Shown here: positions 21,624 to 62,251 of the stretch, piece after piece | Layout: each line of letters starts with the position of its first letter | Position numbering within the stretch: position 1 is the first letter of the stretch | NCBI RefSeq assembly: GCF_964204645.1 | Contig: NC_134028.1 | Coordinates: 16,623,653-16,687,652 of the forward strand | Reading direction: 5' to 3' | From: Tubulanus polymorphus | Taxonomy: Eukaryota; Animalia; Nemertea | DNA length: 64,000 nt | Notes under the pieces: generated by a model | Databases searched by the model: none | What the model was told of the DNA's origin: nothing | The model's input: only the letters and a program-made list of their open reading frames with translations | Program-made: the position numbers and the translations under genes

Positions 21624-21638
21624 AATCCTAATTTGGAA

Positions 21639-22024: not shown

Positions 22025-22025
22025 A

Positions 22026-30905: not shown

Positions 30906-31262
30906 AGTAATAGGGATAATAGGCTTTCAGGCCAAAGGTCGAACGGTCGAGCTCGTAAAAAATGAAAATAATAATAATTTACAGTTGAATTAGTCGCGCA
31001 CACTCCTAATTCAACTGTAAATTATTATTATTTTCATTTTTTACTCACTCGCCCCTTCAACCTTTGACCAGAAAGCCTATTATCCCTATTACTCTTAAAA
31101 TATTCACATATATGAATAAAATATAAATCATTGAACTTCTAAAATCAATTTTAATAAAAAATATAGTATTAAAATGGAAGCAAATAAGTACTACTGCCCA
31201 ACATGTAATATCGATATAGATAAATCCCAAAAAGCAAGACACAATAAAACTAGAACACATTT
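30906..31262 (+). repeat. Left TIR of copy C; its first 188 bp (30906-31093) form a hairpin
   Basis: Reverse complement of 49352-49708; self-complementary arms around a TCGCGCACACTC loop. Confidence 0.95.
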
Positions 31263-32229
31263 GTTTTTAGTCCAGTTGGTTAAAGCAAAGACATTTATCG
31301 AATTAAGGAACTCAACATATAGTGAAAAATATGTTGAATCGTTATAAACACCCGATAATACTCAGCTATATAGTTGGTTGCATTAGCTCTAGTAAACATA
31401 TGTTACCAGCTTATATTTCAATTGTAAAGAGTTAATTAATTTCATTGATCTAAATGCCTTTATTATTGATTTTTTTTTCAACTTCAACGCGTTGTGTATA
31501 CGGCGAACGTAGCGAATCACAAATCTCATAATTTACAAGTCTCAACACGCTTGTTCTAGATGTTTATACTAGAACATGATTCTATTTTAACCTATATACA
31601 TTCAATGTATAGAGCTATGGAATAAATCTATAAATTCACAGCCGTTACAGTTGTTACTATGACGACGACACATTATGACGTGTAGAGAGAGAACACTCTA
31701 GAACCGGAACTAGATGACGTGGCAAGAAATGAACATACGCTGTAATATTGTGCTCAGGATATTCTATCTTTCGAAACGAAATTAGGAGTTTATAGTTTAC
31801 AATTCTAAATCTAAATGTAAGTACTGTTTTTTGTAGTTATTGGGGCTATTAAATATGAAACCTTTAGATATATTTAAGTGTATTTAGTATATCTTTTAGA
31901 TAGCTAGAGTTACCGCTAATATCTTTTAGATTAATAAAAAGTCATATACATCAAGAAGTGATAGAGAAACTCAAGATACTCTTTCTACCTGAGGAATCAA
32001 CAGCAATGGATATCAAATCAATAGAATCACCAAAAGATCGAAGAAGAAATATAAGAATTTCAAAAACATTGAGACTCCAATGATTAAGTTTAACATTTGT
32101 TGATGTAGTTAAATATTTACCAGCAATTGAAAAAATGTTTGTAATTATAAATTATATTTATAGAAATCAAATGATGTATTAGAAGAAATGACTGAACAAC
32201 TTGTATAATGTATTGTGTAAATCTACTTG

Positions 32230-32680
32230 GTGAATTTTTATATTCAGTCGTTTCAATAATGATTCGTTTCAATTATGATTAGCGCATGCGCATTAAGCAA
32301 AAGCGCGCACGAATGCGCGCTTTTGCTCAGGTATGATTTGTGAATTTTTATGTTCGGTCGTTTCTATTATGATTAACGCATACGCATTAAGCAAAACCGG
32401 CCACAAATGGTCGCATGTGACGCATGTAACACATGTAACGCATGTGTTGTTTCTATTTTACAGAATTTATAGAATGAATATATAATTATGATTAGCGCAT
32501 GCGCATTGATCAAAAGCGCGCACGAATGCGCGGTTTGCTCAGTTGTATGATTTAGATATTTCATGTCGGTTGTTTCTATTTACATAATTATATATTCATT
32601 ATGTAAATATAATTATGATTAACGCATGCGCATTAAGCAAAAGCGCGCATGAATGCGCGGTTTTGCCCAGTGGTATTATT
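32230..32680. promoter_or_regulatory. Four-unit repeat array with CGCATGCGCA palindromes and small GC hairpins
   Basis: ATTATGATTA(A/G)CGCAT(G/A)CGCATT units at about 32272, 32367, 32485 and 32612; GCAAAAGCGCGCACGAATGCGCGCTTTTGC stem-loop. Confidence 0.6.
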
Positions 32681-32804
32681 TAGATATCAAGGAATCGAAA
32701 CAACTTATCAAAAGCAGCGAGGAATGAAAAAGGATGACGTTGATCGAAGAAATGGAAGAGGATTATAAATTATTAACCAATTTAGTAAAAAATATGTATA
32801 ATAA

Positions 32805-33470
32805 ATGGAACCAGAACAACCACAAATTATCAATATTACAAATAACACTGGCGTTATAAACATATATTACAAAAAGTGTTCTAAATGTGAATTAGATAAA
32901 TCATTAACAGAATTTAGTAAGCGTAAGATTAGCAAAGATGGTTTTCAATATTACTGTAAAAATTGCATTAAACTATATACCAAACAATATCGAGAAGATA
33001 ATAGAGAATCTTATAATGATTATATGACAGAATATATGAGAGAAAGATATCAAACAGATCTTAATTTTAGATTGAAACAATGTTTACGGTCTAGATTAAC
33101 ACAATTATTTAACAAAGAAACATATTCAGAAACACTATCTAATCTATTGGGTTGTTCAGATGAATTTCTCAAATCATGGATAATATATCAATTCGACGAT
33201 AAAATGAATATAGATAATTATGGTGAATACTTTCATATTGATCACGTGTTACCAATATCTAAATTTAACATGAATGATGAATACAATAAAAAACTTATTT
33301 GGAGTTGGAAAAATTTAAGGCCTTTAGAAAAGAAGGAAAACATAATTAAATCTAATAAACTAGATATGAAATTATATTTAGATCAACTGGATAAAGCAAA
33401 GACATTTGTTGAATTATGGAATAGTATTTCACAGAATCAACCGCATTCTGAGGTTTTGATCAGTGGTTAG
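32805..33470 (+). CDS. HNH endonuclease with an N-terminal Cys4 zinc ribbon
   Basis: CSKC..CKNC zinc module; HIDHVLP...NLRPL....N..KSNK HNH core. Confidence 0.85.
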   Translation: MEPEQPQIINITNNTGVINIYYKKCSKCELDKSLTEFSKRKISKDGFQYYCKNCIKLYTKQYREDNRESYNDYMTEYMRERYQTDLNFRLKQCLRSRLTQLFNKETYSETLSNLLGCSDEFLKSWIIYQFDDKMNIDNYGEYFHIDHVLPISKFNMNDEYNKKLIWSWKNLRPLEKKENIIKSNKLDMKLYLDQLDKAKTFVELWNSISQNQPHSEVLISG

Positions 33471-34352
33471 AAAGCTGGTAATTCTATTTGAGCTTTGTAT
33501 GTATATAATACATAGCTTTTGCTTACTACTAAAACATATGTTGCCAAATATATCTTGTTTTCAATTCTAAAGAATTAATTAACTTCATCACAAAGAACAT
33601 CTGTGCAGAAATAATTAGTTTGGTCGAACGTGCGCCACGTTGGTAGTTAGAAATCAACATTCACATACATAGATTAATAAAATATGAAAAATTCAAAATA
33701 TTAGGATTAGCATTTAGTGAAGTAGTAAGACATTTACCAGAAATTGAAGAAATGATTGTAAACAATCCAGTAATTAAAGAATTCTAGACAAAATTATAAA
33801 TTATAATACTGAAGGTCTTAGATCTCGATTGTATATATCTGTTTTAATATTGTATTGTTTACTGTTAACTGTGTATTGCGCAATAACCGGTCCGATTGGA
33901 CCGCATTTCTATTGTTCTCCATTGTTCTATTATCGATCGCTAAAATGTGTATAATAAATATATGTGTTTATGAAATAGTAATTCCACCAGTCGTTTCTTT
34001 GAATTTATTTTCAGTTTGAGGATTTATTATCGAGGATCCGAAATGACTTATCTGGACAGTTATAGTTACTGCTCCTAATAGATAGACAATAGTAGTGAGA
34101 TAATCTAAATCCTAATTTAAATAAAATATAATAAAAAAACAATAACTTCAACTAGCTAGTCAATTCTATTATATTTTCAATATTTTCTTTTGTTAATTCT
34201 AATTGACATTAGATTGAATAGATTTTGAATAGATTTGAATAGAAATTCTTTAACTTTAACTAACCTAGTCAATTTAGTATTAACCTAAAGAGATACTAGT
34301 ATCATTTGAAGAATACTTATAATACTATTCTTATTAAATTTCTCTAATATAA

Positions 34353-34955
34353 ATGTCAAAGAAATCTAATAAGAATAGTATTGATATTGAAAAAACATTA
34401 GATGATTGAGGTATTAGTGATAATAAGGATACAGTTGTTTCTAATTCTATTCAAGTTAATAACAATATAGATTATGAATACTATTTATATTGTAAGCATC
34501 ATCTAGAACTATTGATTGCTGGCGGGAAATCTAAGGACTTCTTAGGAAAAATAATAACTTTTCAAGAACTAGACTCTATGAAACCCGATAAAGTAATCAA
34601 ATATTTTAAGATTTATGAAGAGGCAAGATTAGCTAGAATAAATGATTCTATTTCAGATGGTATTGTCAAATGTTATTCTAAGTTATGTAACCAGTTAATA
34701 CCAATTGATGATGAAAATAAATTATATAATGATTTGAAAAATGACTACTTAGTTATGACTGAATTACAAAAATGGGTTGGTTATGCTTCATTTCAATTAG
34801 GATCGGTTATGACATTGATTTCTACTGGAGTTATAACATTTTCGAACATCAAACCTATGGAATATAAATCAGGTAAGAACGAAACAGATGTACTACAACC
34901 AAACGTCGAAACAGAAAATGAATCAAAACAAAAATTAACTAAAATAAATGAGTGA
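34353..34955 (+). pseudogene. Polinton hypothetical protein with an early in-frame TGA
   Basis: TAAATG start at 34353, TGA at about 34407, frame continues into ORF 34512-34955; 3' part is also present at 19331-19552. Confidence 0.6.
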
Positions 34956-35307
34956 TGGAGTTAAGAAAAAGGCTAGATCCGAGAAACAAATTAAATGGGC
35001 AAGAGAATTAGGTAAAAGATCATCAGAATTAAAAAAAGCTAAGAAAAAGAAATTAACTGATATAAATGAATCTGATGGTATTGATTCAAATAATAATCCA
35101 TCTAATTCTTCTAATAGTGGAAGAAATAATTACTTATATATTACAATTGGGTTAATCACAATTATTATATTCTCTGGTGTAATATATAAATCAAAATTCA
35201 AATCTGATGATAAAGATGATTCCAATGATAACAAACCTATTATACCAGAAAATAAGTCAAATCATAAAGTCATTGAAAATAAATCTAAAATATTATTAAT
35301 GGATTAA
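34948..35307 (+). CDS. Small basic single-TM Polinton protein
   Basis: TM YLYITIGLITIIIFSGVIY; homolog at 19545-19910. Confidence 0.75.
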   Translation: MSDGVKKKARSEKQIKWARELGKRSSELKKAKKKKLTDINESDGIDSNNNPSNSSNSGRNNYLYITIGLITIIIFSGVIYKSKFKSDDKDDSNDNKPIIPENKSNHKVIENKSKILLMD

Positions 35308-35313
35308 AATAAT

Positions 35314-36399
35314 ATGAAAAAAGAACAATATTTAAGAGATTTATATTATAACCCAGAAAGTGAAGTATCATATTCTAACGTTTCAGAATTATGGAATAAA
35401 ATTAAATCCGATAATAGTGATATAAAATATAGTGAATTAAAATCATGGTTACAAAATCAACCCACATATCAAATTCATAAAAAGATGGATAAAAAATATT
35501 TAACAAGAAAAGTAATGGTTTCATATATCGATCAACAATGGCAAGCTGATTTAATTGACATGAAAAACTTAGAAGAATACAACAAAGGATATTTCTGGAT
35601 ATTAAATGTTATAGACATATTCAGTCGATACGCATGGAGTATCCCGATTAAAAATAAAACTGGTATAGAAGTTACAAATGCTTTTAAATCTATATTTAAA
35701 GAAGCTATCCCAGATAAAATACAATTTGATGAAGGTAAGGAATTTTATAACAAACATTTTAAAAAACTATTAACTGATAACGATGTAGAATATTTTTCAA
35801 CACATTCAGATAAAAAAGCATCCGTTATAGAAAGATTTAATAAAACATTGAAAACTAGAATGTGGAAATATTTCACCGCTAATGAAACATATAAATATGT
35901 CGATGTGTTAGATGATTTAGTTAAAGGTTATAATAATTCTAAACATAGTTCTATAAATATGAAACCTATACAAGCTAGAAAAGAAGAAAATTCAGAAATA
36001 GTTTGGAATAATTTATATGGTGCGTTTGTTACACATGATTTTGGAGAACCTAAATTTAAAATAGGACAACATGTTAGAATTTCTAAATATAGAAAAACAT
36101 TTTATAAAGGTTATACCCCTAATTTTACTGAAGAAATATTTAAAATTAAAAAGATAATATTAACTAAACCATTTGTTTATAAATTAGAAGATCTAAAAGA
36201 TGAAGAAATATTAGGTTATTTTTATGAACAAGAATTATCACTTGTACCAAATCCAGATGAAATAGAATACAAAATAGAAAAAGTATTGAAAACTAAAACT
36301 CTTAAAGGAAAAAAGTATTCTTTGGTGAAATATAAAGGATATGATGATAAATTCAATGAATGGATTTTATCTAGTAAAATTAAAAGAATAAATGAATAA
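35314..36399 (+). CDS. Retroviral-type (rve) integrase with C-terminal chromodomain
   Basis: DDE triad QADLID / QFDEGKEF / IERFNKTLK; chromodomain YKIEKVLK...LVKYKGYDDKFNEWI. Confidence 0.95.
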   Translation: MKKEQYLRDLYYNPESEVSYSNVSELWNKIKSDNSDIKYSELKSWLQNQPTYQIHKKMDKKYLTRKVMVSYIDQQWQADLIDMKNLEEYNKGYFWILNVIDIFSRYAWSIPIKNKTGIEVTNAFKSIFKEAIPDKIQFDEGKEFYNKHFKKLLTDNDVEYFSTHSDKKASVIERFNKTLKTRMWKYFTANETYKYVDVLDDLVKGYNNSKHSSINMKPIQARKEENSEIVWNNLYGAFVTHDFGEPKFKIGQHVRISKYRKTFYKGYTPNFTEEIFKIKKIILTKPFVYKLEDLKDEEILGYFYEQELSLVPNPDEIEYKIEKVLKTKTLKGKKYSLVKYKGYDDKFNEWILSSKIKRINE

Positions 36400-37006
36400 A
36401 GATTTATTTATATTTGAACCACATAATATGTTAGTTACTGGAGTTACAAATTGTGGTAAAACACACTTCATATTATATTTATTAGAAACTATTTATAAAA
36501 ATCATTTTGATAATATAATATTATTCTGCCCAACTTATGAAATGAATGAAACGTATAATAGAGATATAGTTTTTAAAGATAAAAAGTTTATTATATTAAA
36601 TTCTAAAACAGTGAAAGATAATTTAGATAATTGTATAAAAATTGCAATAGATATTTATAAAGGATCTAATACATTATTTATTATTGATGATTGCGCAAAT
36701 TTACATGATTCAAAAGTTAGAGAAAGTGAGTTATGTTATTTAGCTTTCTCTGGTAGACATTTTGGGATAACAACATGGGTTTTAAATCAGAAATATAATT
36801 CAATTGTGAAAGACTTTAGAGAGAATATAAGATTTCTAGTTTTATTTTATAACAAAGATAAAAAATCTATGCAACAATCATTGGAAGAAAATCAAATTAT
36901 ACCTACTGAATTACATGATGAATATATGAATAAATTAAAGAATAATAAAGGTTCCAAATTACTTATGAGATTACAATTTCCATATGAATATAAATTTATA
37001 AAATAA
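36392..37006 (+). CDS. A32/FtsK-like genome packaging ATPase
   Basis: GVTNCGKT, FIIDD, SGRHFGI and LNQ motifs. Confidence 0.92.
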   Translation: MNKDLFIFEPHNMLVTGVTNCGKTHFILYLLETIYKNHFDNIILFCPTYEMNETYNRDIVFKDKKFIILNSKTVKDNLDNCIKIAIDIYKGSNTLFIIDDCANLHDSKVRESELCYLAFSGRHFGITTWVLNQKYNSIVKDFRENIRFLVLFYNKDKKSMQQSLEENQIIPTELHDEYMNKLKNNKGSKLLMRLQFPYEYKFIK

Positions 37007-37017
37007 AATCCTAATTC

Positions 37018-37405
37018 AAAAGATTATAGAATTCACTGTATACTAATGGATGAGTGGATGAATTGGATGAATTGGATGAATTGGATGAGTGGATGAATGG
37101 ATGAGTGTAATAATATATAATTTACATATGTTTTTTATTTTTAAAACAGTAAGAGTTTGATTTGAAGTTATTTTATTAATTTTATACTATATTTAAATAT
37201 TATTTTAATAATATATATATATTGTGTTAAATTTAATAAAGAATATAAATATTATATTTATACTCATACTATTCTTCCAATTTATGTGTTAAAAAGTAAA
37301 ATATATATATTATTATACTCATCCACTCTTCCACTCATCCAACTCATCCAACTCTTCCAACTCATCCATTCATCCATCAATATACAGTGAATTCTATAAT
37401 CTTTT
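37018..37405. repeat. Long inverted repeat filling the convergent intergenic spacer
   Basis: AAAAGATTATAGAATTCACTGTATA+(TGGATGA)n at the left mirrors (TCATCCA)n+TATACAGTGAATTCTATAATCTTTT at the right; arms about 100 bp. Confidence 0.85.
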
Positions 37406-38367
37406 TAATTTTCATTTTCATATTTTTCTTTAAGCTTATTGTATTCTAACCATAAATTCCTTTGCATTTTCATTGGTATAGGTCCTAAATGATTCTCGAG
37501 TTTATATTTATTGAATGTTTTTCTTGAAAATATTTTTGGAATATAATTTTCGATTTCAGTTTTAGATGGATGTTTATTTAAAAATTCTCTAAAATTATAC
37601 CACCGATAATCTAATATATTCTTATTATTAAATTTTGGATTTATAACTGTTGGATTTTCTATTACATTATCTGTACCAATATGTTTAATTGAGTATTTAT
37701 GATTCAATTGTTTATCATATATTACATATTCTTTACATTTTTCACACCAAGATTTAAATACCTGTATTGCATGGGCTGAATCATTTCCACCTTTTGTTTT
37801 TAATTTATAATGTTTTGCCCAATTAGCCTTTGTTATACATTCATTACAGAAGGCACAATAATTCTGATACTCTTTGCATTTATCTTTATATATATTGGCA
37901 TATGTTTTTACTAATTGTAAAATATGTTCATCTTTTTTGATGTGTAATAAATAATCATTATAATTATCAAAATCTTCTTCACAATACATACATCTGATGT
38001 TATCTTTTGGTTGAACATTTGATTTTTCTATTTTAGGTTCAATATTATATTCTATTTTTGTTTCAATCTTATCATCATTCGATGTAGAAGGTATAACGTT
38101 ATCTTCTATTTTAGATTCAATATCATTCTTATCTTCTATTTTAGGTTCAATATTATCTTCTATTTTAGGTTCAATATTATCTTCTATTTTAGGTTCAATA
38201 TTATCTTCTATTTTTGTTTCAATATTCTTATCTATTTTACTTATTCTATATTTGAATTGATTAAAGTAATCTCCAAAATACTTACTGTATTCATCATAAG
38301 GTAATATATAATATATATCTGATATCATTTCACTTGGAGTTTGTATTTCATATATTCCACCTTCCAT
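37405..38367 (-). CDS. Zinc-finger accessory protein with 8-aa IEPKIEDN repeats
   Basis: CMYC..H..H, CAFC and CEKC fingers; 24-bp tandem repeats at about 38130-38225. Confidence 0.8.
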   Translation of the reverse strand: MEGGIYEIQTPSEMISDIYYILPYDEYSKYFGDYFNQFKYRISKIDKNIETKIEDNIEPKIEDNIEPKIEDNIEPKIEDKNDIESKIEDNVIPSTSNDDKIETKIEYNIEPKIEKSNVQPKDNIRCMYCEEDFDNYNDYLLHIKKDEHILQLVKTYANIYKDKCKEYQNYCAFCNECITKANWAKHYKLKTKGGNDSAHAIQVFKSWCEKCKEYVIYDKQLNHKYSIKHIGTDNVIENPTVINPKFNNKNILDYRWYNFREFLNKHPSKTEIENYIPKIFSRKTFNKYKLENHLGPIPMKMQRNLWLEYNKLKEKYENEN

Positions 38368-38399
38368 TTAATATAAGATTTTTTATTAAAGTTAAAATT

Positions 38400-39647
38400 T
38401 TAATACATAACACTATCTAATTGTGAATTTACAATATTTAATTGCGCGTCAGATATAATATAAATGTGCATTTTAAAATTTTTGATTCCCTTTTTCTTTG
38501 TCATGAATAATTGTATTCCATCTTTTGTATTTTGTAATTTTTTCCCAGAACCATGTAATAAGTTATCTTCAGTTGTTCTAAAATCTAACCATAATGCGTA
38601 TTTATTACCGGTATAATAATCAATTTGATTAATGTTACAATTTTCAAATGATTTTATTTTTTCATTCATAAAATGTTTTTTAATTTCTACCCATTGATCA
38701 ATCATTCTCATTCCTTGACAGAATATTTTATTCGCTATACCTTCGATAGTTATTTCTACTTTTGTTATTTCAGGATTATAATAATTATCAACATTTATTG
38801 CACCATTAGTATACGTTCCAATGGTAAAAAATATTAATATACCTTTAATAGATCTTCTAGGAAAGTTAATATTCTCATTAATTATTTCATCATTTGCATT
38901 AATAGTTACAGTTTTAAATTTATCAATATAATCATATAATAATGAAAACCCTTGATTGTATTGAGTTTGAATAATACTTGAAATATTTTCATCAGTTACT
39001 GTATCATATTCTAAACATATATTCGATAATTTATAACTCATATCTTTATTAACGCTAGATAATACAATTTCATTTACAGGAGCAAATGTTATCTCAAATA
39101 TAACGTCTTCTTGAATTGCGTATTTATATAAAGGTGCATTATTATTTATCAATTCAAAGTCTAATGGAATTTTATATTTACTTCCATATATACTTTTTAT
39201 CAATTTATCTACATCATTTGTTAATATTGCGCTATTAGCTTCTGATCTTAATTTATTTTGGTTTTCTGATTGAATACCCTGAAATATCATATTATTTCTA
39301 TTTTCTTTAGTTAACCATAAATCTTTATAATGCATAAATAAATTATAATCATCTAATGAGAAAACTGTTTCTGGACCAATCTTTATTGTTAACTTTTTAA
39401 TCAAATATCTTCCAACATTATCAACGACATAATTATTATTATTACCGATTACTTTTATATCGGCTGATAAATAAATACTGTTTGGAACATAAAAAGTATT
39501 TTGTGTTAATCTAGGAATTCTAACGTATAAAGTTTCATCGGGATTAATATTTGAAGGGTTATGAGTAATTATATGATGTGATCTTTCTGCTTTAATAGCA
39601 TTAGATATTCTATGATTCTTAGAAGGATTGATATAACTCCCACTCAT
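38400..39647 (-). CDS. Major capsid protein (probable double jelly-roll)
   Basis: 415 aa, beta-rich, conserved between copies, in Polinton context; C-terminal LWLDFR...MHIYIISDAQLNI pattern typical of Polinton MCPs. Confidence 0.8.
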   Translation of the reverse strand: MSGSYINPSKNHRISNAIKAERSHHIITHNPSNINPDETLYVRIPRLTQNTFYVPNSIYLSADIKVIGNNNNYVVDNVGRYLIKKLTIKIGPETVFSLDDYNLFMHYKDLWLTKENRNNMIFQGIQSENQNKLRSEANSAILTNDVDKLIKSIYGSKYKIPLDFELINNNAPLYKYAIQEDVIFEITFAPVNEIVLSSVNKDMSYKLSNICLEYDTVTDENISSIIQTQYNQGFSLLYDYIDKFKTVTINANDEIINENINFPRRSIKGILIFFTIGTYTNGAINVDNYYNPEITKVEITIEGIANKIFCQGMRMIDQWVEIKKHFMNEKIKSFENCNINQIDYYTGNKYALWLDFRTTEDNLLHGSGKKLQNTKDGIQLFMTKKKGIKNFKMHIYIISDAQLNIVNSQLDSVMY

Positions 39648-39667
39648 TTATTTAACAAAAAAATTAA

Positions 39668-41359
39668 TTATTTATTTTTTATCATATTCACTAACCCAAA
39701 AATAATAGCACTTACAACTGTAATTAAAAATAAAATAATATGTTCAGCAGCAAAGTTAATAATGTTTCCTGCAGATTTCAATATAAAACCAACAATTGAA
39801 GCAATAACTCCTGGCAATGCAGCAGCAGATTTTTTAGATAGTTCCCATAAATATTTTGCTAATTTCTTTAAACCATCTTTAACTTTATCTTGTATAGAAT
39901 TATTGCCTGGAGGTTTATCTGGTTTATTTGGAGTAGGAGTAGATTTCAAAGCATTTGATATTGCTAAACCAATTGTTGTAAATAACATAGTTACAGCTGT
40001 TAGAATTGAAAGAATTGTTATTCCTTCTAATTTAAATAATAACTTTATTCTATCTTTCAATGATATTTCAGAATTTGGTTTAATCAACAAATCTTTAAAA
40101 ATAACTTTTAATTTTTTAATATGATTAAGATCATATGATTTTAATAATATATCTCTTTCTTTTTCCTGTAATTCTTTGTTATATTTTAAATCATCTATTT
40201 CTTTTTCTAAAGCTAACTTTCTGCTTTCAAAATCAGCTTCCTCGATTAATTGAAGATCTCTATTTAATTCTAATTGTTTTAATTCTTCATTTGCATTAGT
40301 TAATTCTTTTTCTAACATGGTTATTTTAGAAAATCTCATCTTAATATTAGCAATTTCACCAGCTGATTCTTGCATACCTTTAATTTCTCTACGTGTTTTT
40401 TCAGGAAATGCTTCTAATTCTTCATCAGTTAAATCAAGTAATCCTTTTTCTAGTAAAGATTGTATTCGATTTATTCCAGTTTCAGAACCAGATGTATCTG
40501 ATATACTATTCATCAGTTCTTCTGAATCTCTTAATCTATCAATTTGTTTTTCTAATGTTAATTATAATTGACTTGAATCATTATCAATTTGTTGAGTGTC
40601 TCTTCTCGATGTTTCGGGTGTTGAAGATCTTAATTTATCTAATCGATGTGCAAAATCTTCATCAGTTTCTGGATCAACATCAGTAGGATTTGGATTTGGA
40701 TTTTTAAATGGTGAATATTTGTTTATATCAATTTTAGGAATTGGTTCTTCTTCATTTATTCTATCGATTGCATTCCATATAATTCTGAGAAATTCTCTAC
40801 CACCTTTTGAACCTTCAATTGTAGATAATGCTCGCATTCCAGGTTCAAAAATATTTTCTTGACCCATTCTAGATAATTGAATTGATACAGTATTCCTATT
40901 TAAATCAAGATTATAATACCATGCATCATTTTTAAATTCTAAATTATTTGTGAAATATGGGTCATCTTTAAAAATTTGTTCTACAACATCTTCAGTATCA
41001 ATTTCATCTATTACAACTTTTGGTAATAATTCGTTAACAATTGTATCTGTTACTCTAGATTTCATTCTATATAATTCCATAGGTTTATCAGGATATTTTT
41101 CTTGTTCTTTTACTAATAGTTCCATAAATTCTTTTCTTTCTCTTCTAGTTGAAATTCTACCCCTTTCAGGAGCTTCTAAATATTTATTTAATTTTTCACG
41201 TAATTCGGAATCATCATCTTCACCTAAATTAGTATTATATGCTGATTCATCATTTGTATCAATATTAGTTTCTGCATCATTATAATCATCATCAATATAT
41301 CCTTCATTATTATTTCCCATTTCTCCCATTTCATAATCTTCTCCACCTTCTACATCCAT
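39668..41359 (-). CDS. Acidic domain (40562-41359) plus coiled-coil/multi-TM domain (39668-40513), in one frame separated by a single TAA
   Basis: Reading through the TAA at 40562-40564 continues LTLEKQIDRLRDSEELMNSIS in frame. Confidence 0.75.
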
Positions 41360-41374
41360 TTACATAATAAAAAA

Positions 41375-42763
41375 TTAAAATTTAAAATATAATATTCCTC
41401 CGATTACAATTCCTATACAAGTTATAGCTAATTTAGTATTTTCATGGGATTTATTATCATCATTTAGTTTAATTATATCATGTTGAATATTATCAGTTTT
41501 TATATTTTCTGATGTATTGTAATCTTTTATTTTGGAATCATTATTTAATTTAATATTCTTAGTTTTAGTTTCTGTTGATTGAATATGTTTTTTATTTTTT
41601 TCACCTTCCATTAATTTTGGGGCAGTAATAATCTTTTTATTTATATCATTTAATCCAAATGAATTATTTATTGTTGCAGTTTTAATTAGATTATTGTAAC
41701 CAATTATATTTCCCATCTTTAATACTAAATCATTAGAAATAATTAATAGATTAGGGCCTATACAATAATTTAGTCTTACATGAGATTTATCTAAATAATT
41801 TTGATATCTTATAATGTTTTCTGGAATCGATCTATTTTTATCATTATGAATTGAATCTTCAAATAAAACTTTAAATTGTTTTTGTGTATCGAATGATGTA
41901 TTCAAATTTCCAATTATCGGTGATCTTGTTTCAACTTGTGATCCTAGAATACAAATCAAATAAGTTCTAATAGATTGATTTATTCTTTCTATACCTGATT
42001 TTGTAAAACCTTCACTATTCTCTAAAATAAAATATACCCAACCATTATTGTTTTCTTGTTTTAAATGATCATAAAATTTCGGTAATTTATTGAAATTTAA
42101 TGTTTCTAAATCCTTTGTTTCTATCTTACCATAACCTAATTTTTTATTATAGATATTATAAAAACTATTAGATGGTATAGGAAGTGCACAATATTCTGCA
42201 ATCTTTCTAGGGCAAGGAAGTGATCTTATTGTTCCAATTTTTGTTCTAAAATCAGAATTATTTATATCTATATTAAATTCATTACAAATTTTATAAAACT
42301 TAGATAAATTGATATTATTATCTAATTCTTTGAAATACCTAGATCCTGGTAAAGCGCACTCTAATTCATTTAATATTATTCTGATTTGAAAGTATGTATG
42401 AAATCTAAATAAACTTTGAATTAATTTATATTTAGAATTATTCAAATGATCATTCCAACTAATTCCACAACCTGTTGTTGCACAATAAACAGCAAAATTT
42501 AATTGATTCTGCCAATACTTCATATTAGATTTTAATAACCATTGTTTTTCATCTTTCAATTTTTTAAAATTAATTAAATATACATGAAATATATTTTCCA
42601 TCTTTGCATTAAAATTATTAGTTTCAGTAACATAAATATATAAATTAGTTAATGAATCTAAAACTTCATTTCTATATGTAATATCTTTATTAAAATCTAT
42701 TGCTGGAATATTATATTTAATTGATTTATTATATTGGAAAGCTTTTGGAAAACTATCTACCAT
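41375..42763 (-). CDS. Conserved Polinton protein (462 aa) with a C-terminal TM anchor; function unknown
   Basis: Intact ORF with WQNQLNFAVYCATTGCGIS motif; present in copies A, B and C. Confidence 0.85.
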   Translation of the reverse strand: MVDSFPKAFQYNKSIKYNIPAIDFNKDITYRNEVLDSLTNLYIYVTETNNFNAKMENIFHVYLINFKKLKDEKQWLLKSNMKYWQNQLNFAVYCATTGCGISWNDHLNNSKYKLIQSLFRFHTYFQIRIILNELECALPGSRYFKELDNNINLSKFYKICNEFNIDINNSDFRTKIGTIRSLPCPRKIAEYCALPIPSNSFYNIYNKKLGYGKIETKDLETLNFNKLPKFYDHLKQENNNGWVYFILENSEGFTKSGIERINQSIRTYLICILGSQVETRSPIIGNLNTSFDTQKQFKVLFEDSIHNDKNRSIPENIIRYQNYLDKSHVRLNYCIGPNLLIISNDLVLKMGNIIGYNNLIKTATINNSFGLNDINKKIITAPKLMEGEKNKKHIQSTETKTKNIKLNNDSKIKDYNTSENIKTDNIQHDIIKLNDDNKSHENTKLAITCIGIVIGGILYFKF

Positions 42764-42779
42764 TTATATAATTAAAAAA

Positions 42780-43214
42780 TTAATAATTTATTAATTCTTT
42801 TAATAATTTATCTTGTTCTTCAACTGTTATATGACCATTTAAACTTATTATATAATCTAGTGTGTTCTTTAATTTATTAATTTCTTTTATATTAGTTTTA
42901 ATTTTTTCTTTATTACTTTTTATATTTAATTTTGAACTTATACCAGTTAAAACACTTGAACTTAATCCTAATACACCAATTGATATAGCTAATGGTGTTA
43001 ATGGACTGAATATTGCTAGAAATGTTATTACAGAACTAATTGTAACCGAACCACTTATAATCAAATAATATATAATTTTACTTTTTAAATATTTTTTCTT
43101 TTTTATCTTTAAGTCACTTTCAAATTCTAATATTTGTTTTTCTAAATATCTTTTTAATTTAGTTTTATTTATATCATGAGGAATAATATCAATACTATCA
43201 ACTTTATCTTCCAT
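42780..43214 (-). CDS. Polinton two-TM protein (144 aa)
   Basis: Intact; conserved in three copies. Confidence 0.85.
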   Translation of the reverse strand: MEDKVDSIDIIPHDINKTKLKRYLEKQILEFESDLKIKKKKYLKSKIIYYLIISGSVTISSVITFLAIFSPLTPLAISIGVLGLSSSVLTGISSKLNIKSNKEKIKTNIKEINKLKNTLDYIISLNGHITVEEQDKLLKELINY

Positions 43215-43233
43215 TTATTTAGAATAAAAATTA

Positions 43234-43656
43234 CTAATTAGTAAACTTATAAGCAATAAATATAACAATAACTGTTCCACCTAAAATCCATATTATTTCA
43301 TATTTCTGTTGTTCTTTACTTGGGGTATAATAATCTGATAATTTAGGTTTGTATAGATGTAATTTTTCTTTATTTGTTACTGCGTTATATAAACTCATTG
43401 CATCATCAACTGATTGAAAATCTCTATGTGAAATCTTCTGATTATATAATTCTTTATTGATGTAATCCATATAGTTTTGTCTTTTTTCTCTATATTCTTC
43501 TGCAGCTTTATTGTATTTCTCTAACGCTAAGTTATGTCTTCTTTGTTCTCCTAATGAACTATTTTTATCAATATGTTTAAATAAATAACCACCACCAGTA
43601 AATGCTAAAGCGTTAACAATTGCCGATCCTATAATAGTTATAATTGCAGAAGCCAT
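43234..43656 (-). CDS. Polinton membrane-associated protein (140 aa)
   Basis: Intact; hydrophobic termini. Confidence 0.85.
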   Translation of the reverse strand: MASAIITIIGSAIVNALAFTGGGYLFKHIDKNSSLGEQRRHNLALEKYNKAAEEYREKRQNYMDYINKELYNQKISHRDFQSVDDAMSLYNAVTNKEKLHLYKPKLSDYYTPSKEQQKYEIIWILGGTVIVIFIAYKFTN

Positions 43657-43681
43657 TTATTTAGCAAAAAAAATTATGTAT

Positions 43682-43903
43682 TTATATGGGAGGAATATAT
43701 TTTTGTTTTTCCAAATAATCAATAGTTAAATTAGATAAAGTAACTGCTAACGTTAATTTCAAAATATCATTTATATCAAATCTATCAACATTAACACTTC
43801 CCATTTTGAATACTTTTTTTAATACCATTGAATAACCAACAGTTCCAACTGATAGTAATGCTCCATTATATAATCCAGTTATTATCCACTTATTATCACT
43901 CAT
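43682..43903 (-). CDS. Small hydrophobic Polinton protein (73 aa)
   Basis: Intact in three copies. Confidence 0.8.
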   Translation of the reverse strand: MSDNKWIITGLYNGALLSVGTVGYSMVLKKVFKMGSVNVDRFDINDILKLTLAVTLSNLTIDYLEKQKYIPPI

Positions 43904-44245
43904 TTATTTATCAAAAAAATTACTATCTTCAAAATATTTAGTTAACTTATTTATGATTAATTCAACATTTATTTCATTACTAGTTTTATGATTATCATAT
44001 ATTTTGGATAATATGTTTTTAATATCTTCAATAATTCCATCTTCATTTAATTCATAATATTCTAAAGGTGATTTAATTAAATCAATTACTTTTTCTATAT
44101 TATACTTTTCTTTATCAATCATTGATGCATTGTTAAATGATTTACTTTTTATATCAGTAATTACATCATTTAGTTTAATTCTCATTTCTTTACCATGTTT
44201 AAAATCAAACCCAAAACATATACTCGGTCCAACAGTAATATTCAT
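43904..44245 (-). CDS. Polinton hypothetical protein (113 aa)
   Basis: Intact; homologs in copies A and B. Confidence 0.75.
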   Translation of the reverse strand: MNITVGPSICFGFDFKHGKEMRIKLNDVITDIKSKSFNNASMIDKEKYNIEKVIDLIKSPLEYYELNEDGIIEDIKNILSKIYDNHKTSNEINVELIINKLTKYFEDSNFFDK

Positions 44246-44261
44246 TTATATAGTGAAAAAA

Positions 44262-45020
44262 TTACTCTTTACATCTTATAACTAATTCATAAATTACAGG
44301 GAAATTATTTAAATCAATTAAGTATCCATTATGATTTCTAATTTCTAATCTAAAATTATTAAAACTAGGAATGCATGGTTTGAAATCACATTCTGTTAAA
44401 TTATAATTTATTTGCGTTCCAAATTCTTTAACATTTTTTAATGGTAAAATATTTAATATACTAGAATTACATGTTGTATCTTTAGTTGCTTCAAATGTTT
44501 TTGTTGGGTCAATTAAATTGCAATAAATATAAAAATGTGTAAAAGGTATTATATTTGAAATACCTTCTACGTTTACTGTAACAACATCTGGTTCAATTCC
44601 TAGCAATTTAGCTATAGGTTTTTTTACCATAAATGCATGTTGACTTTCATCAAATACCTTTATTTTAATTCTATTTGAGCTATCACTTTTTATAAATCTT
44701 ATTAAAAATTTATCATCTTTTCTAATTTTCAACCGTGCTCTACGATTAATTTCTTGAGATAATGTTTCTATATTATATAATCCTGGTCTTAGAAATAGAT
44801 GAAACCATTTATTTATACTTCTAATATGAATTAAAAAAGTATTATGTTCAATAGTTTTATTCGATATATTATAAAAAGAATTACATAAACTTATATTTAC
44901 TAATTTTAAATCTACACAATTCTTGAATTCTCTATCTAATTGTACTAATAAATTATGTGATTTATAATTTGTAAGTTTTCTAGAATCAACAAATATTCTG
45001 TATTCTTTTAATTCCACCAT
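44262..45020 (-). CDS. Minor capsid protein (penton-like single jelly-roll)
   Basis: IFVDSR N-terminal strand, YIYCNLI, and LEIRNHNGYLIDLNNFPVIYELVI C-terminal pattern typical of Polinton/NCLDV pentons. Confidence 0.8.
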   Translation of the reverse strand: MVELKEYRIFVDSRKLTNYKSHNLLVQLDREFKNCVDLKLVNISLCNSFYNISNKTIEHNTFLIHIRSINKWFHLFLRPGLYNIETLSQEINRRARLKIRKDDKFLIRFIKSDSSNRIKIKVFDESQHAFMVKKPIAKLLGIEPDVVTVNVEGISNIIPFTHFYIYCNLIDPTKTFEATKDTTCNSSILNILPLKNVKEFGTQINYNLTECDFKPCIPSFNNFRLEIRNHNGYLIDLNNFPVIYELVIRCKE

Positions 45021-45035
45021 TTATTTTACATATTT

Positions 45036-45377
45036 TCATTCGAAATCTATTTCATGGTGCCCTTTTTCATTCTTACCTTTGTATACGAAATAGAAATCTC
45101 CAGAACATAATTCTTCTAGATCTTCACTTGATAATCTATGAAATCTATCTGGTAAATAAGTTCTGAATTTATATATATTTCCTTTTAATCCTTCATATTC
45201 TAAATGAATTACTAATTTATCTCCATATTTATTAGTAATTGTTTCAATGTTAGTAATTAAATATTTCTTGTGAATTGTTAATTCTGTTAACTTTTTGAAT
45301 TTATAATCTACAGATTTGACGCTCGAAGTATCTTTAATTCTATCTAAGAATTCACTGTGTACTTGTTTACTCTCCAT
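45036..45377 (-). CDS. Small beta-rich protein, possible OB-fold ssDNA-binding protein
   Basis: TNKYGDKLVIHL...TYLPDRF; adjacent to pPolB. The fold is inferred. Confidence 0.6.
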   Translation of the reverse strand: MESKQVHSEFLDRIKDTSSVKSVDYKFKKLTELTIHKKYLITNIETITNKYGDKLVIHLEYEGLKGNIYKFRTYLPDRFHRLSSEDLEELCSGDFYFVYKGKNEKGHHEIDFE

Positions 45378-45405
45378 TTATTATACAAATTTTTATTGAA
45401 ATTTA

Positions 45406-48400
45406 TTAACACGTTAGAATCCTTTTCATAATCTCATTTTCTTTTGTTTCTTCTCTTTTGAATTTTATATATTCATCTAAATTGCAACCATAGGCGACTG
45501 TGTGGATTCCATCATCTAAAATATATCTTTTATCATCAAATGGATTCAAACTTATCTTCTCTATCTCTTCAATATACATTTCATGATCTTCAGATCTTAA
45601 ACATTTCATTTTATGTTTTCTAACTTCTTCATTAAATATACAATTGATGTAATCTTTAAAATGAATATTTTTTTCTACTACACTTTTGGTTATTCCTTTT
45701 AACTTTTTAGCTTCATGAGTTTTGGTTTTATATGAATACATTTTAGATCTAATACCAATGAACTCTATCATTTCTTCACCACCTAATTCATCCTTAAACT
45801 TCCCAGGAACTTTTTTATTATCATTGCTAAACAATTCATGATTTTTTGGATAGTTACTAAAATCAAAATGATGTTTTAATGTTTTTAAATCATCTGTTAT
45901 GTTATCAGTTTTTATCTTTAATATGTAACTGTCGGTATCAAAGTATAGAATTTCTATGTGTTTTTCTCCAAAATGGGGTTGTAATATGTTATAGTAAAAT
46001 TTATACATTAGTAATTTTGAAATTTCTAAAACCGATGCTCCAACATAAATAGGTTTATTGAACTTCATAGAAGTTCTTTTTAATTTAACTGCTGCTAAAT
46101 TTTCATCGAATATTCTATTACCTATGAATTTCGGATACGATTGTAAATGTCTAATTCTTTTACCATTACTAACTAACTCAATATCATTTCTATTTCTTAT
46201 GTTTTCACAAGTCTTACCATAGAATGCATTATTCATTAGTTTGAAGAAATCTTTTTCAAAATCAGTTTTAGATTTAGTTCTCTGTGTAGTATTAAAATCT
46301 ATATATTTTTCTAACCATTTAGATTGACTGAATGAAATATATCTATGTACTTTTTTTAATATCATTCCTTGATTCAAATAAAACTTCAACATTCTATAAT
46401 GTACTACATAATTATATTTATCTTCTTGAGTTACCATTAACTTTTCAGTATGAATATGATTATCGGGTTTAATTCTTTTTTGATAATTTGATAATTCTTC
46501 ATGAGTTACAGTTTTATGTTCGGGACAATATGCTAGATTTCTAGATTTGAATTTAATATTTTCAGGGTATTCTAAATCTACAACAAAGAAGTAACCAGTA
46601 TCTGAATCATCTGCAATATCTAGTATTCTTTTCTTCCAATCAAATTTATCAATTTGTAAAACTTCAGTTATTTCAAACATCCCATAAGGTTGTGGTTCCA
46701 TCATTGCCCAACCATAAAGATTATTTGCATCTATGTATAATAATTTATATCCAGGATTATCATTTACATTGAAATATCTATCACCCAATACACCTGAAAC
46801 ACCTCCTCTTATAGATTTTTCAAATAATAGTAATTGATCTATATTTGTTAACAAATCCATTTTTATATCTGTAAATTTTAATCCACAATCCCATGTTAAT
46901 CCTGGTGATGAATAACAATGACAAGGATCAATGTTAAAATATTTTAGGTTTACATCTCTAAACCTTTCGAATATATCGGTTAATAATAATACATCTGATT
47001 TTAAATATAAATCTACTAATTGACCATGATTTTCTATTTTGAAATGATTCCAAATATTCAATGTTCTATTATATACTTCATCTTTAACATATTCATTTTT
47101 TAATTCATCATAAAATTGTTCTTTTAATAATTCAGTTATATTAAAATCATTATGATTTTTATAGAAAGAATATGGAATTGCTCCTTTATATCTCATTAAT
47201 TTAAAATCATCATAATTTGGGTAATATTCTTTTAATATCTTTAATTCGTCATCAACTAATGATTTTGATAAGTTATCTAATGAACTACTTAAAAATCTAT
47301 ATGAATCTATAAATCTTAAGCATCCAAATTGGAATGATATATAATTCTCAGATGTTTTAGCTAACATTCTAAATTTATAAGTTGGTATTTTATCTTTTGA
47401 TCTATTTGAATTTAATATTTCTATTTCATTATTGATTTCTTCTATTTTATGACATAACTGTTTGATGAATAAATGCGCGTCATACCCCGATAGATTATGA
47501 AATATAACTGGTACAAAATTAATTTTCTTAGCTTGTAAGTTACAATTCTCATGTGCAGCGCCTCTAAACTTTCCATTCAAATGATCATGATCTCTTACTT
47601 TTTTATCTTTATAATTAAATATCTTTTCACAATAATAACATTTATCTGCAAACTCAAATTCTTCTTTATCTTCTTCTGTCATAATTATTTCTTTATTTGT
47701 ATTCAATAATTTACTAAATCTTATTTCATATTCAATTAATAAGTCACAAAAATGATTGATAACATTTTCATTTCTATAATTATAATATTCACTTTCGATT
47801 AGTTCTGGATAATTAGATTTAATATATAACCCGAAAGCTGCAGCTGATTGATGAATCTTTTTAATTGTATTTGTTTTTGGTGGGTCTTCTGAATAATCAC
47901 TTTCATTAGAATTTAATTTCTTTCTTTTATAATATATATCTTTTCTATCTTGATCAGTTAATTCTTTATTTAATGATTCAAAATCTCCATATATTACAAA
48001 TGGAACTTTATTTTTGTAATCATATTTTTTGAATTCTAATATTTTATCTTTTTCATTTGGTAAAACTAATTTACAATAATCATGATTATCACATAATTGT
48101 TTATGATTTAATAATGTACTTTCATTACTAAATTTATGTAAACATTTTCTACATAGATATATTTTATTATGGTGATCATTTTCTGTTCTAAAGAATAAAT
48201 CTATTTGTTTAATCCACATATAATGATTCTCATAATATAATATATCTATAACATCGTTTGAATCATAATCTTTTGATAGGTATAAAGGTTCTAATGTATA
48301 ATGTTTAATATTATTTCCTTTTGTATTTGGTAATTTGATTAAATCAAATACATTTATTTTAAGATTATTATCTCTTTCTATTTTTGGGATGTTTTTAATT

Positions 48401-49440
48401 CTAACAGGATACTTATCTATCTTATAATTATTTTCAAATTGTTTATAATGAGTTAATCTATAAGTATGTTTATTATAATCTTCAACTGGATGTAAACAAC
48501 TTATTATAGCCCATAGAAAACATTTATCATCTTCATTTTGTATATTTATTACAGCATTAGTTTTAAATGGTAGTTTAATATAACTTGATGCTTCAATATC
48601 GGGTTCTTTATAATATGATAAATTATTATCATCAATTGGTTTTGATTTAGTTAACTTATTATATTTTGTGTTATAAACATGTAAAGTTATAAATATTATC
48701 TCATCAAATATTAAACCAGATCCTTCAAAATATTTTTCTTCTATTTTAGTTTTTATTTCATTATAACATTTATTTAATTTATCATCTATATGTTGTTTAG
48801 ATATAATATGTTGTGAATGAGAATTTATATTATATATTGGTTTATCTTCAGATTTTATAAACTTTACTTTAACTAATATACTAATTTTAGGATATTCAAC
48901 ATCTGTAATTATTTTTATTATTTCTTTCATATTTTCTAAATGTTTTTTATTTTCTTCTATTGTTTTACCTTCATGAAATTTAAACTCGATAGCTGCTGGA
49001 CCAATATCACTTTTAAATGCTTCGGTTATCTCTATATCTTTTTTATTATCTAATGAATTAATATAATTTCTTACATCTTCCATATATGGTCTTTTATTGT
49101 TTAATTTATTTTTTATTCTTTTAATTGTCTTCTGTTTCTTATCGTTATCATTATCAAAATAATCTTCACCTAAAATATCATTATTCTTATTTCTAATATG
49201 ACTTATAGATTTTAAATGTTCTTTATAATATCTTTTATCACTGAATGATTGATTACATGTATCACATTTGTATGTTTCTTTTTCATCCTTTAATTCTTCT
49301 AATTTATTTTCTAATATATCATCTTCATATTCTAATTTCAATTTATTCTCTAAATGTGTTCTAGTTTTATTGTGTCTTGCTTTTTGGGATTTATCTATAT
49401 CGATATTACATGTTGGGCAGTAGTACTTATTTGCTTCCAT
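45406..49440 (-). CDS. Protein-primed family B DNA polymerase (1344 aa) with N-terminal zinc fingers, OTU-like and endonuclease VII-like domains
   Basis: ExoI YGDFES, ExoII FHNLSGYD, PolA YIDANNLYG, PolB KLMNNAFYGK, PolC YFDTDS; DDKCFLW..H; CYYC..RDHDH..HENCN. Confidence 0.96.
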   Translation of the reverse strand: MEANKYYCPTCNIDIDKSQKARHNKTRTHLENKLKLEYEDDILENKLEELKDEKETYKCDTCNQSFSDKRYYKEHLKSISHIRNKNNDILGEDYFDNDNDKKQKTIKRIKNKLNNKRPYMEDVRNYINSLDNKKDIEITEAFKSDIGPAAIEFKFHEGKTIEENKKHLENMKEIIKIITDVEYPKISILVKVKFIKSEDKPIYNINSHSQHIISKQHIDDKLNKCYNEIKTKIEEKYFEGSGLIFDEIIFITLHVYNTKYNKLTKSKPIDDNNLSYYKEPDIEASSYIKLPFKTNAVINIQNEDDKCFLWAIISCLHPVEDYNKHTYRLTHYKQFENNYKIDKYPVRIKNIPKIERDNNLKINVFDLIKLPNTKGNNIKHYTLEPLYLSKDYDSNDVIDILYYENHYMWIKQIDLFFRTENDHHNKIYLCRKCLHKFSNESTLLNHKQLCDNHDYCKLVLPNEKDKILEFKKYDYKNKVPFVIYGDFESLNKELTDQDRKDIYYKRKKLNSNESDYSEDPPKTNTIKKIHQSAAAFGLYIKSNYPELIESEYYNYRNENVINHFCDLLIEYEIRFSKLLNTNKEIIMTEEDKEEFEFADKCYYCEKIFNYKDKKVRDHDHLNGKFRGAAHENCNLQAKKINFVPVIFHNLSGYDAHLFIKQLCHKIEEINNEIEILNSNRSKDKIPTYKFRMLAKTSENYISFQFGCLRFIDSYRFLSSSLDNLSKSLVDDELKILKEYYPNYDDFKLMRYKGAIPYSFYKNHNDFNITELLKEQFYDELKNEYVKDEVYNRTLNIWNHFKIENHGQLVDLYLKSDVLLLTDIFERFRDVNLKYFNIDPCHCYSSPGLTWDCGLKFTDIKMDLLTNIDQLLLFEKSIRGGVSGVLGDRYFNVNDNPGYKLLYIDANNLYGWAMMEPQPYGMFEITEVLQIDKFDWKKRILDIADDSDTGYFFVVDLEYPENIKFKSRNLAYCPEHKTVTHEELSNYQKRIKPDNHIHTEKLMVTQEDKYNYVVHYRMLKFYLNQGMILKKVHRYISFSQSKWLEKYIDFNTTQRTKSKTDFEKDFFKLMNNAFYGKTCENIRNRNDIELVSNGKRIRHLQSYPKFIGNRIFDENLAAVKLKRTSMKFNKPIYVGASVLEISKLLMYKFYYNILQPHFGEKHIEILYFDTDSYILKIKTDNITDDLKTLKHHFDFSNYPKNHELFSNDNKKVPGKFKDELGGEEMIEFIGIRSKMYSYKTKTHEAKKLKGITKSVVEKNIHFKDYINCIFNEEVRKHKMKCLRSEDHEMYIEEIEKISLNPFDDKRYILDDGIHTVAYGCNLDEYIKFKREETKENEIMKRILTC

Positions 49441-49708
49441 TTTAATACTATATTTTTTATTAAAATTGATTTTAGAAGTTCAATGATTTATATTTTATTC
49501 ATATATGTGAATATTTTAAGAGTAATAGGGATAATAGGCTTTCTGGTCAAAGGTTGAAGGGGCGAGTGAGTAAAAAATGAAAATAATAATAATTTACAGT
49601 TGAATTAGGAGTGTGCGCGACTAATTCAACTGTAAATTATTATTATTTTCATTTTTTACGAGCTCGACCGTTCGACCTTTGGCCTGAAAGCCTATTATCC
49701 CTATTACT
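49352..49708 (-). repeat. Right TIR of copy C; hairpin at 49521-49708; contains the pPolB upstream region and first 30 codons
   Basis: Reverse complement of 30906-31262. Confidence 0.95.
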
Positions 49709-62031: not shown

Positions 62032-62251
62032 ATAATGAAAAATCATATAAAGATATTGTAGTTCAATGTAATTTAGATGATGAATTTAGAAAATTCAATC
62101 CTAATGAAAAAGTGCATTGTTATTGCGGAGGTAAATATTTAAAATCACATAAATCAAAGCATTATGAAACAATTAAACAAAAACTGGCGTAAAGAGTAAC
62201 AATTCTACATTCTAATTATTGAATTGGGTTAAATGATTTAAATATCTAATA

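Follow-up and report, generated by a model that had tools for sequence, protein, structure and literature searches.

A Polinton of the nemertean Tubulanus polymorphus with poxvirus-late-type start motifs and terminal fold-backs, a likely satellite of a pox-like virus

Maverick-Polintons occur almost always in animals, and no virion of them has been observed (10.64898/2026.06.19.733378). Endogenous virophages give a precedent for promoters matched to those of a helper virus (10.64898/2026.07.28.741278; 10.1101/2025.10.09.676808), and polinton-like viruses (PLVs) were recovered from the occlusion bodies of entomopoxviruses (PMC11296320). Terminal palindromes (in a 2026 preprint, 10.64898/2026.07.28.741278) and entomopoxvirus-associated PLVs (PMC11296320) are already in print. 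The late promoter of vaccinia and mpox viruses is TAAAT, usually with a G behind it, and overlaps the start codon; the 10th base upstream is a conserved T flanked by weaker ones, and the intermediate promoter is TAAA with an A-rich upstream region (PMC11980589). Here a stretch of 64,000 nucleotides of Tubulanus polymorphus (contig NC_134028.1, positions 16,623,653 to 16,687,652, forward strand) was analysed, which is called the window and whose own positions are used below. Four copies of one Polinton family (A to D), one nested in another, were found in this 64-kb window, and copy C (30906-49708) carries a start motif of the poxvirus late type on nearly every gene, which suggests that it is transcribed with the help of a pox-like virus.

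The hexamer TAAATG was found at 13 of the 17 open reading frames (ORFs) of copy C and at 45 of 746 other ATGs (Fisher p = 1e-12), with 5.6% expected under a Markov null. Of the four exceptions, two are the distal parts of genes interrupted by a premature stop, and these genes have TAAATG at their true starts. With broken genes scored by the true start the motif stands at 14 of 16 genes, which bears out the claim of an earlier sequence-only reading that almost every gene has it. The two genes left are those of pPolB, which starts with TAAAATG, and of the integrase, which has neither form; the pPolB start, with an A-run upstream, looks intermediate-like. A split of promoters by gene class is only suggestive, since the ATPase was A-dominant in 6/6 and the capsid T-dominant in 9/13 intact starts and other genes were mixed. 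The motif was retained in copies A and B.

The motif was then counted in ORFs of at least 100 amino acids in relatives, for which the best 80 of the 218 metagenomic loci with the capsid gene were used (L001-L080). In the 16 closest loci 50 of 58 ORFs had it, in L037 10/10, and in the 63 distant loci 4 of 290 (2/46 in 17 loci with GC up to 40%, 2/244 in 46 GC-richer ones). Thus the close relatives, which the sequence-only reading had itself named as the place where its proposal could fail, do carry TAAATG. The close group was first drawn after the counts were seen, and an independent recovery came from the capsid tree, where copy C and L001-L014 formed one clade with SH-aLRT 99 (quick IQ-TREE, 68 rows). 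That tree left out 13 loci with fewer than 300 aligned residues, including L026 and L066, and L037 stood in it on a long branch with unsure placement. Three clade loci at 36-44% GC retained the motif in 7 of 9 ORFs, so base composition does not explain it.

The motif has a second part upstream. Among 73 distinct TAAATG starts, left after removal of three near-duplicate loci and chosen without regard to upstream T, position -9 held a T in 65 and position -10 in 56, the T of TAAAT being the reference point; of 142 TAAATG hexamers in the same DNA that are not starts, 51 and 48 had it (p = 2e-14 and 2e-9). This T and the vaccinia late T agree within one base, depending on the way of counting, and promoter activity is what the match of letters suggests. 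In addition, the T at -3 differs from the AAAATG context of AT-rich outgroup elements. Strand counts of TTTTTNT were uninformative.

TAAATG might instead come from stop-start coupling, or from overlap with an AATAAA poly(A) signal, in a compact genome and be no promoter at all. The junction at 43904/43903 is a genuine abutment of TAA and ATG, and 31/73 starts read AATAAATG. However, this junction is the only one among the 13 TAAs of copy C motifs that terminates an upstream ORF, the other 12 terminating none; the motif stands at 12/14 divergent gene starts, and AATAAA is absent from 42/73 starts. Both readings fail for these reasons, and they leave the upstream T element unexplained, so that this origin appears very improbable. 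A count of poly(A) signals was uninformative, with no enrichment in the clade (19/76 against 16.2 expected) or in the outgroups (9/42 against 6.0, 4/236 against 5.5). No conserved AG was observed at the starts, which argues against a splice or trans-splice acceptor.

Another possibility is that the Polinton is autonomous and nuclear and that host RNA polymerase II transcribes it; the T-run with TAAATG would then be a clade-specific compact initiator, and the likeness to poxviruses would be due to convergence. This fits the high copy number, the diverse insertion sites, the fact that no helper was seen, and the usual view of Polintons as nuclear integrating elements of animals (10.64898/2026.06.19.733378); TBP also participates in poxvirus intermediate and late transcription (PMC8400408), and an AT-rich TBP site could converge. 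On the other side, the match spans the start-codon-fused hexamer plus the spacing of the upstream T, and the 63 sister loci manage without the motif. A TATA box at the ATG would place the transcription start site inside the ORF, and the gaps between tandem genes are 0-32 nt. Transcription by the host enzyme is therefore regarded as unlikely, while still deserving attention.

Less probable than that, in our estimate, is a relic: a lineage of former pox-like satellites that is now a nuclear transposon in this host, with its promoters unused. Each of the four copies in the window is either broken or partial, with two broken genes in copy C, they nest in one another, and the integrase gene is without the motif in copies B and C. 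But almost every orthologous start keeps an intact motif, both between copies diverged by 6-9% and in relatives with 50-77% capsid identity, which argues for recent selection on it, and copy C retains identical terminal inverted repeats (TIRs) and intact ORFs for pPolB, capsid, ATPase and integrase.

The reading favoured here, as the probable one, is that the element needs a co-infecting pox-like cytoplasmic virus for its RNA polymerase and would thus be a virophage-like satellite. Such a lifestyle had been proposed from the sequence alone and is partly supported. Dependence on a helper gains firmer support than that reading could give it, from a bipartite, clade-confined and GC-independent motif that matches the vaccinia late promoter and also occurs at divergent starts; the part without counterpart in the data is the helper or a free form of the element, neither of which was seen. 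Several points weigh against dependence on a helper. Neither a helper virus nor a transcript 5' end nor a free genome was observed; among 28 proteins without assignment from the window and the clade loci, none came from a poxvirus-specific gene (Pfam, E up to 0.5), and the sole pox-named Pfam match is a VLTF3-like ORF that is common to relatives without TAAATG. The integrase gene of copies B and C is outside the motif set. From a read depth of hundreds-fold with diverse flanks it follows that germline integration is frequent; such integration requires access to the nucleus and could run without a helper.

If a helper is used, the element would be largely silent in the chromosome until the helper supplied its post-replicative transcription factors and polymerase, which would induce it. 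The polymerase would act in trans, and the Pfam search found no RNA polymerase gene in the element itself. Transcription would begin within the AAA of TAAAT, where slippage would give the RNA a 5' poly(A) leader. The element would then replicate as a linear molecule by its own pPolB, be packaged and integrate again.

A wider form of the satellite reading is more doubtful and is offered tentatively: a widespread Maverick-Polinton clade could consist of endogenous germline satellites of an undiscovered pox-like virus family, switched on by late transcription of the helper, with flip-flop hairpin ends, and still keeping the protein-primed polymerase and the integrase. If true, this would explain why Polinton virions were never seen, and it would point to an inducible defence against poxviruses. 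A helper-type promoter on every structural gene makes the trigger of Polinton activation directly testable. Pox-like viruses are predicted in the hosts of this clade, and TAAATG frequency could serve as a cheap screen for helper-dependent Polintons.

Fold-back ends, which had been noticed before, were verified for copy C. The outer 188 nt of each TIR form an imperfect hairpin of -70.1 kcal/mol (z = -20, 0/200 shuffles as good), located at 30906-31093 in the left TIR (30906-31262, + strand) and at 49521-49708 in the right TIR (49352-49708, - strand), which has the same sequence. The hairpins of copy B (left end, about 268 nt) and copy D (61092-61425, + strand, 334 nt) have the same outer arms and longer apices, and mismatch bubbles are conserved between copies whose arms otherwise co-varied. 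The right end of copy B is cut at the hairpin loop and shows the inverted (flop) form: compared with the left hairpin of the same copy, it agrees at 130/133 positions when inverted and at 116/127 when not, with the loop and two mismatch bubbles switched.

In parvoviruses flip and flop forms arise from hairpin resolution. They are likewise the product of hairpin resolution in poxviruses (PMC8956199). Replication through the hairpin ends is plausible for the present family. A displaced strand might fold back at the terminal palindrome and resolution would invert the hairpin, with the HNH nuclease or the endonuclease-VII domain as candidate resolvase; this scheme is possible, at somewhat less than even chances. 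Three observations speak against it: the two-base bubble nearest the end of the copy B right hairpin is not inverted, copy C has one and the same isomer at its two ends, so that evidence for flip and flop comes from copy B only, and no poxvirus concatemer-resolution motif was found in the TIRs.

The ends may equally be explained by ordinary protein priming of pPolB, the hairpins being by-products of fold-back synthesis or packaging aids, and the inversion in copy B a result of arm-to-arm recombination, which would give the same product as hairpin resolution. The polymerase retains a terminal-protein-like loop with the priming Ser (FEGSG, residues 238-242) and the vOTU-like Cys/His, the residues expected for pPolB from PMC11071308; protein priming is therefore likely intact, and pPolB might do without priming from hairpins. 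The hairpins range in length from 188 to 334 nt, growing at the apex, accidental annealing is offered in the Halocafeteria preprint, where palindromes go mostly with elements lacking pPolB (10.64898/2026.07.28.741278), and hairpin mismatches of vaccinia virus serve packaging (PMC8956199). The conserved bubbles amid co-varying arms are at odds with this account of the ends, as is the joint inversion of the loop and two bubbles in copy B. The account comes close to an even chance, so that simple priming by protein, with hairpins that are incidental or serve packaging, has the same likelihood as priming by the hairpins.

None of the fetched clade relatives includes a terminus. Six outgroup loci with TIR pairs (L018, L031, L163, L180, L188 and L193) had no long terminal fold-back, where assemblies may lose the true ends; the sole fold-back among them was a subterminal stem-loop of 59 nt in L031. 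In the DNA reads no pile of read ends was seen at the terminus, in libraries of a kind that can miss blocked ends, and no strand-changing joint was found among 15 of 294 joints. Some reads had deletions symmetric about the hairpin axis, from 30968 to 31031 (72 reads) and from 30952 to 31046 (13 reads), which are shorter hairpin variants or library artefacts.

An intein (3191-4255, 355 amino acids, Ser...Asn ends, with a LAGLIDADG domain) interrupts the FD|TD motif (motif C) of pPolB in copy A, and the same site is empty in copy C. Its likeness to giant-virus PolB inteins, noted before, is real, but its nearest kin are other pPolB inteins (61% identity to P0185), and the giant-virus type comes next at about 30-43%. 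At least 13 pPolB-borne inteins form one clade with support 100 (FastTree, 56 rows) beside the giant-virus PolB inteins, in a tree of matches spanning the whole intein. The best 80 of 466 confirmed IMG/VR intein matches were 32-40% identical, 36 of them named GVMAG. In the 80 loci with the nearest giant-virus-type inteins TAAATG stood at only 76/779 ORFs, so these are not the helper. The likeness records an old exchange, and the intein was rejected as evidence for a helper, both for its Polinton kin and for this low count. The endonuclease VII domain, the VLTF3-like gene (in copy A at 4705-5190, - strand) and the loss of adenain were also rejected as markers of the clade, for all are present in relatives without TAAATG; the support that the sequence-only reading had drawn for a helper from the endonuclease-VII insert and the missing adenain falls away with them. 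VLTF3-like genes of polintoviruses have been published before (PMC11131425). No account of inteins in Polintons was evident by title or abstract among the matches listed.

The bounds of copy C at 30906 and 49708, which make it a near-complete element of 18.8 kb, were set by the TIRs and a 6-bp target-site duplication (TSD), AACATA, at 30900-30905 and 49709-49714. The TIRs are 357 nt each, mutually 100% complementary and start with AGTAAT; inward of the hairpin, up to 31262, the left one duplicates the pPolB promoter and first codons. GC content is about 20-31% in the element and about 33-41% in the flanks. Copy C interrupts the gene for pPolB in sister copy B (17848-53328, 92-94% identity), a nesting not mentioned before, and the halves of this gene are 49649-53116 and a tail ending near 30264. 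Copy A (1-11362, + strand) is partial and broken. A 24-bp tandem array occupies 62099-64000, downstream of the copy D terminus.

Raw DNA reads (1.93 Gb) were mapped to the left part of copy C, giving about 800-fold depth over the capsid gene, and 1796 reads crossed the terminus into mixed flanks (agreement 0.34). The family is therefore multi-copy and integrated at many sites. The TSD and the mixed-flank reads confirm the integrated state that had been assumed.

For the left gene block of copy C (all + strand), an HNH-type nuclease (32805-33470, 221 amino acids, TAAATG start) was found, among the fetched loci, only in clade loci. This assignment, made earlier, is weak and consistent: HNH_4 matched at E = 0.059, and a 42%-identical orthologue matched HNH at E = 0.0055. 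A conserved gene with function unassigned (34353-34955) starts with TAAATG at 34353 and has a premature stop near 34407, leaving a distal ORF at 34578-34955. It is followed by a 119-amino-acid protein with one predicted membrane segment (34948-35307, TAAATG start), by the rve integrase with a C-terminal chromodomain (35314-36399, 361 amino acids; PF00665, E = 2.5e-9, above cut-off), which has TAAATG in relatives L001 and L037, and by the A32-like packaging ATPase (36392-37006, 204 amino acids, TAAATG start). The chromodomain may direct insertion to heterochromatin or to other copies.

A long inverted repeat (37005-37418) lies where the convergent gene blocks meet. Unrelated hairpins were observed at the same junction in copy B (21615-22030), L001 (3684-3875), L002 (3092-3181) and L005 (3183-3255), and they are likely a terminator or a structure-based 3'-end signal.

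In the right block (all - strand), a zinc-finger-like protein of variable sequence (37405-38367, 320 amino acids) and the major capsid protein (38400-39647, 415 amino acids) both start with TAAATG. A profile sequence search of PDB found no match for the capsid, and its predicted fold (pLDDT 88) is a double jelly-roll that matches the PBCV-1 capsid in Foldseek at E = 1e-16. The gene of a coiled-coil and membrane protein (39668-41359, TAAATG start) has a premature stop near 40562, and its counterpart in L003 is a single ORF of 485 amino acids. A conserved Polinton protein with function unassigned (41375-42763, 462 amino acids, TAAATG start) has a C-terminal hydrophobic segment and no match in Atlas. 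Four small genes (42780-44245; 144, 140, 73 and 113 amino acids) have TAAATG in 4/4, the first two with membrane segments.

A putative minor capsid protein (44262-45020, 252 amino acids, TAAATG start) was recognized by a profile of 27 homologues, which matched PBCV-1 P1v1 at E = 9.6e-5 over about 107 positions. We take PBCV-1 P1 to be the penton, so this protein is likely the penton too. Next to it is a 113-amino-acid protein with function unassigned (45036-45377, TAAATG start).

The pPolB gene (45406-49440, 1344 amino acids) encodes N-terminal zinc fingers, the terminal-protein-like and vOTU-like motifs and an endonuclease-VII insert, the last confirmed by PF02945 at E = 4.7e-5 (residues 588-636). 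It has the motifs YIDANNLYG, KLMNNAFYGK and YFDTDS, and in an alignment of 1181 columns it shares 36% identity with a relative for which PF03175 gives E = 7e-14. The single-sequence fold of its N-terminus (pLDDT 34) was unusable. Of the six or more hydrophobic proteins announced earlier, five reach Kyte-Doolittle 1.6 over 19 residues and two more are marginal. The absence of adenain was upheld, as a Polinton protease query which found 15 other loci matched nothing in the window; the same query found none in L001-L080, many of which are fragmentary.

The closest relatives of copy C are environmental metagenome contigs, and IMG/VR scans with the capsid, a single pPolB and the terminal motif found no clade member. 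The clade member L003 has a deoxynucleoside kinase (10340-10981, - strand; PF01712, E = 1.7e-31) with a TAAATG start, for which the nearest Atlas clusters are mixed viral and bacterial; this gene counts in favour of the helper reading. A Bcl-2 family gene (E = 2e-18) was seen at 2448-2858 of L058, a Polinton relative without TAAATG. Relatives of Polinton genes in prokaryote-labelled metagenome-assembled genomes or records (L195-L197, P0046, P0192) are most likely binning contamination.

Another Polinton lineage, L179 (IMGVR_UViG_3300020002_000020, 1-9034), has TAAATG at 7/7 genes, mostly without T at -9, a protease-like domain fused to the integrase, an ATPase of 242 amino acids, and a branched hairpin of 184 nt (z = -13) that separates divergent genes immediately upstream of pPolB. 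In the same scan, 30 further pPolB loci have TAAATG at 16/308 ORFs. Since this protease-bearing lineage also uses TAAATG, such wiring may have more than one origin or may have been transferred repeatedly.

Copy C is a Polinton; by function it is likely virophage-like, and by its capsid it is no virophage. The hallmarks of Polinton/Maverick elements are present, namely pPolB, rve integrase, TIRs with a 6-bp TSD, double jelly-roll capsid and A32-like ATPase. The adenain-like maturation protease of group 1 and of adenain-bearing adintoviruses was absent, and so were a virophage-type capsid (the mavirus capsid ranked 40th in PDB with 10% identity) and protease. Copy C likely belongs to group 2 Mavericks (Mavpol2), judged from the missing protease and from capsid relative L016, which has an SF1 helicase instead of pPolB; both are traits of group 2 in 10.64898/2026.06.19.733378.

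Pox-type promoters in Polintons had no account in the literature searched, a search to which subscription articles (the original Polinton papers, the 2024 taxonomy review) and bioRxiv supplements were beyond scope; a word search of the available text of PMC8502044 and two 2026 preprints gave neither 'promoter' nor 'hairpin'. With other Maverick-Polintons (Polintoviricetes; 'adintoviruses', PMC8502044; 10.64898/2026.06.19.733378) copy C shares pPolB, rve, A32-like ATPase, the double jelly-roll capsid and a likely penton, and also TIRs starting with AG, the 6-bp TSD, a length of 15-20 kb, a protease-less lineage and VLTF3-like genes (PMC11131425). Its clade differs from the 63 sister loci by the pox-late-type promoter on nearly every gene, and its family from known Polintons by terminal fold-backs of 188-334 nt with flip and flop and by a Pol-c-type intein in some pPolBs.

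The PLVs AHEV_PLV1/2, CBEV_PLV1 and Ca_PLV1 (PMC11296320) resemble copy C in having Polinton-related capsids and a tie to poxviruses, and are proposed hyperparasites. They have adenain and no rve and come from occlusion bodies of Lepidoptera, whereas copy C is a high-copy rve integrator linked to poxviruses by its promoter only. The main text of PMC11296320 contains neither 'promoter' nor 'TAAAT'. Mavirus/EMALE and the virophages and PLVs of Halocafeteria are likewise integrated small double-stranded DNA viruses with helper-late-type promoters (10.64898/2026.07.28.741278; 10.1101/2025.10.09.676808), and the Halocafeteria elements have terminal palindromes beside the TSD and a hairpin-priming model (10.64898/2026.07.28.741278). 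These systems differ in protist hosts, a CroV-type motif and virophage or PLV capsids; the Halocafeteria palindromes are 52 nt long and go mostly with non-pPolB replicases, with no mention of flip and flop in the section covered.

In poxviruses, as in this family, TAAATG covers the start codon and is preceded by a T at a distance of about 10 bases (PMC11980589), and AT-rich imperfect hairpins occur in two inverted forms (PMC8956199). Unlike poxviruses, copy C has no RNA polymerase or capping genes, its hairpins are unfolded in the integrated DNA, and its TIRs are without the concatemer-resolution motif. The yeast elements pGKL1/2 (PMC6211774) are also linear, with pPolB and a TAAAN initiator that is read with slippage by a pox-related RNA polymerase; they encode this polymerase themselves, have no capsid or integrase, and their main promoter element resembles poxvirus early promoters (PMC6211774). 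Because pGKL1/2 use a pox-related polymerase, the helper of copy C need not be a full virus, and by analogy the candidates are a poxvirus, a relative on a deeper branch, and a cytoplasmic element like these yeast plasmids.

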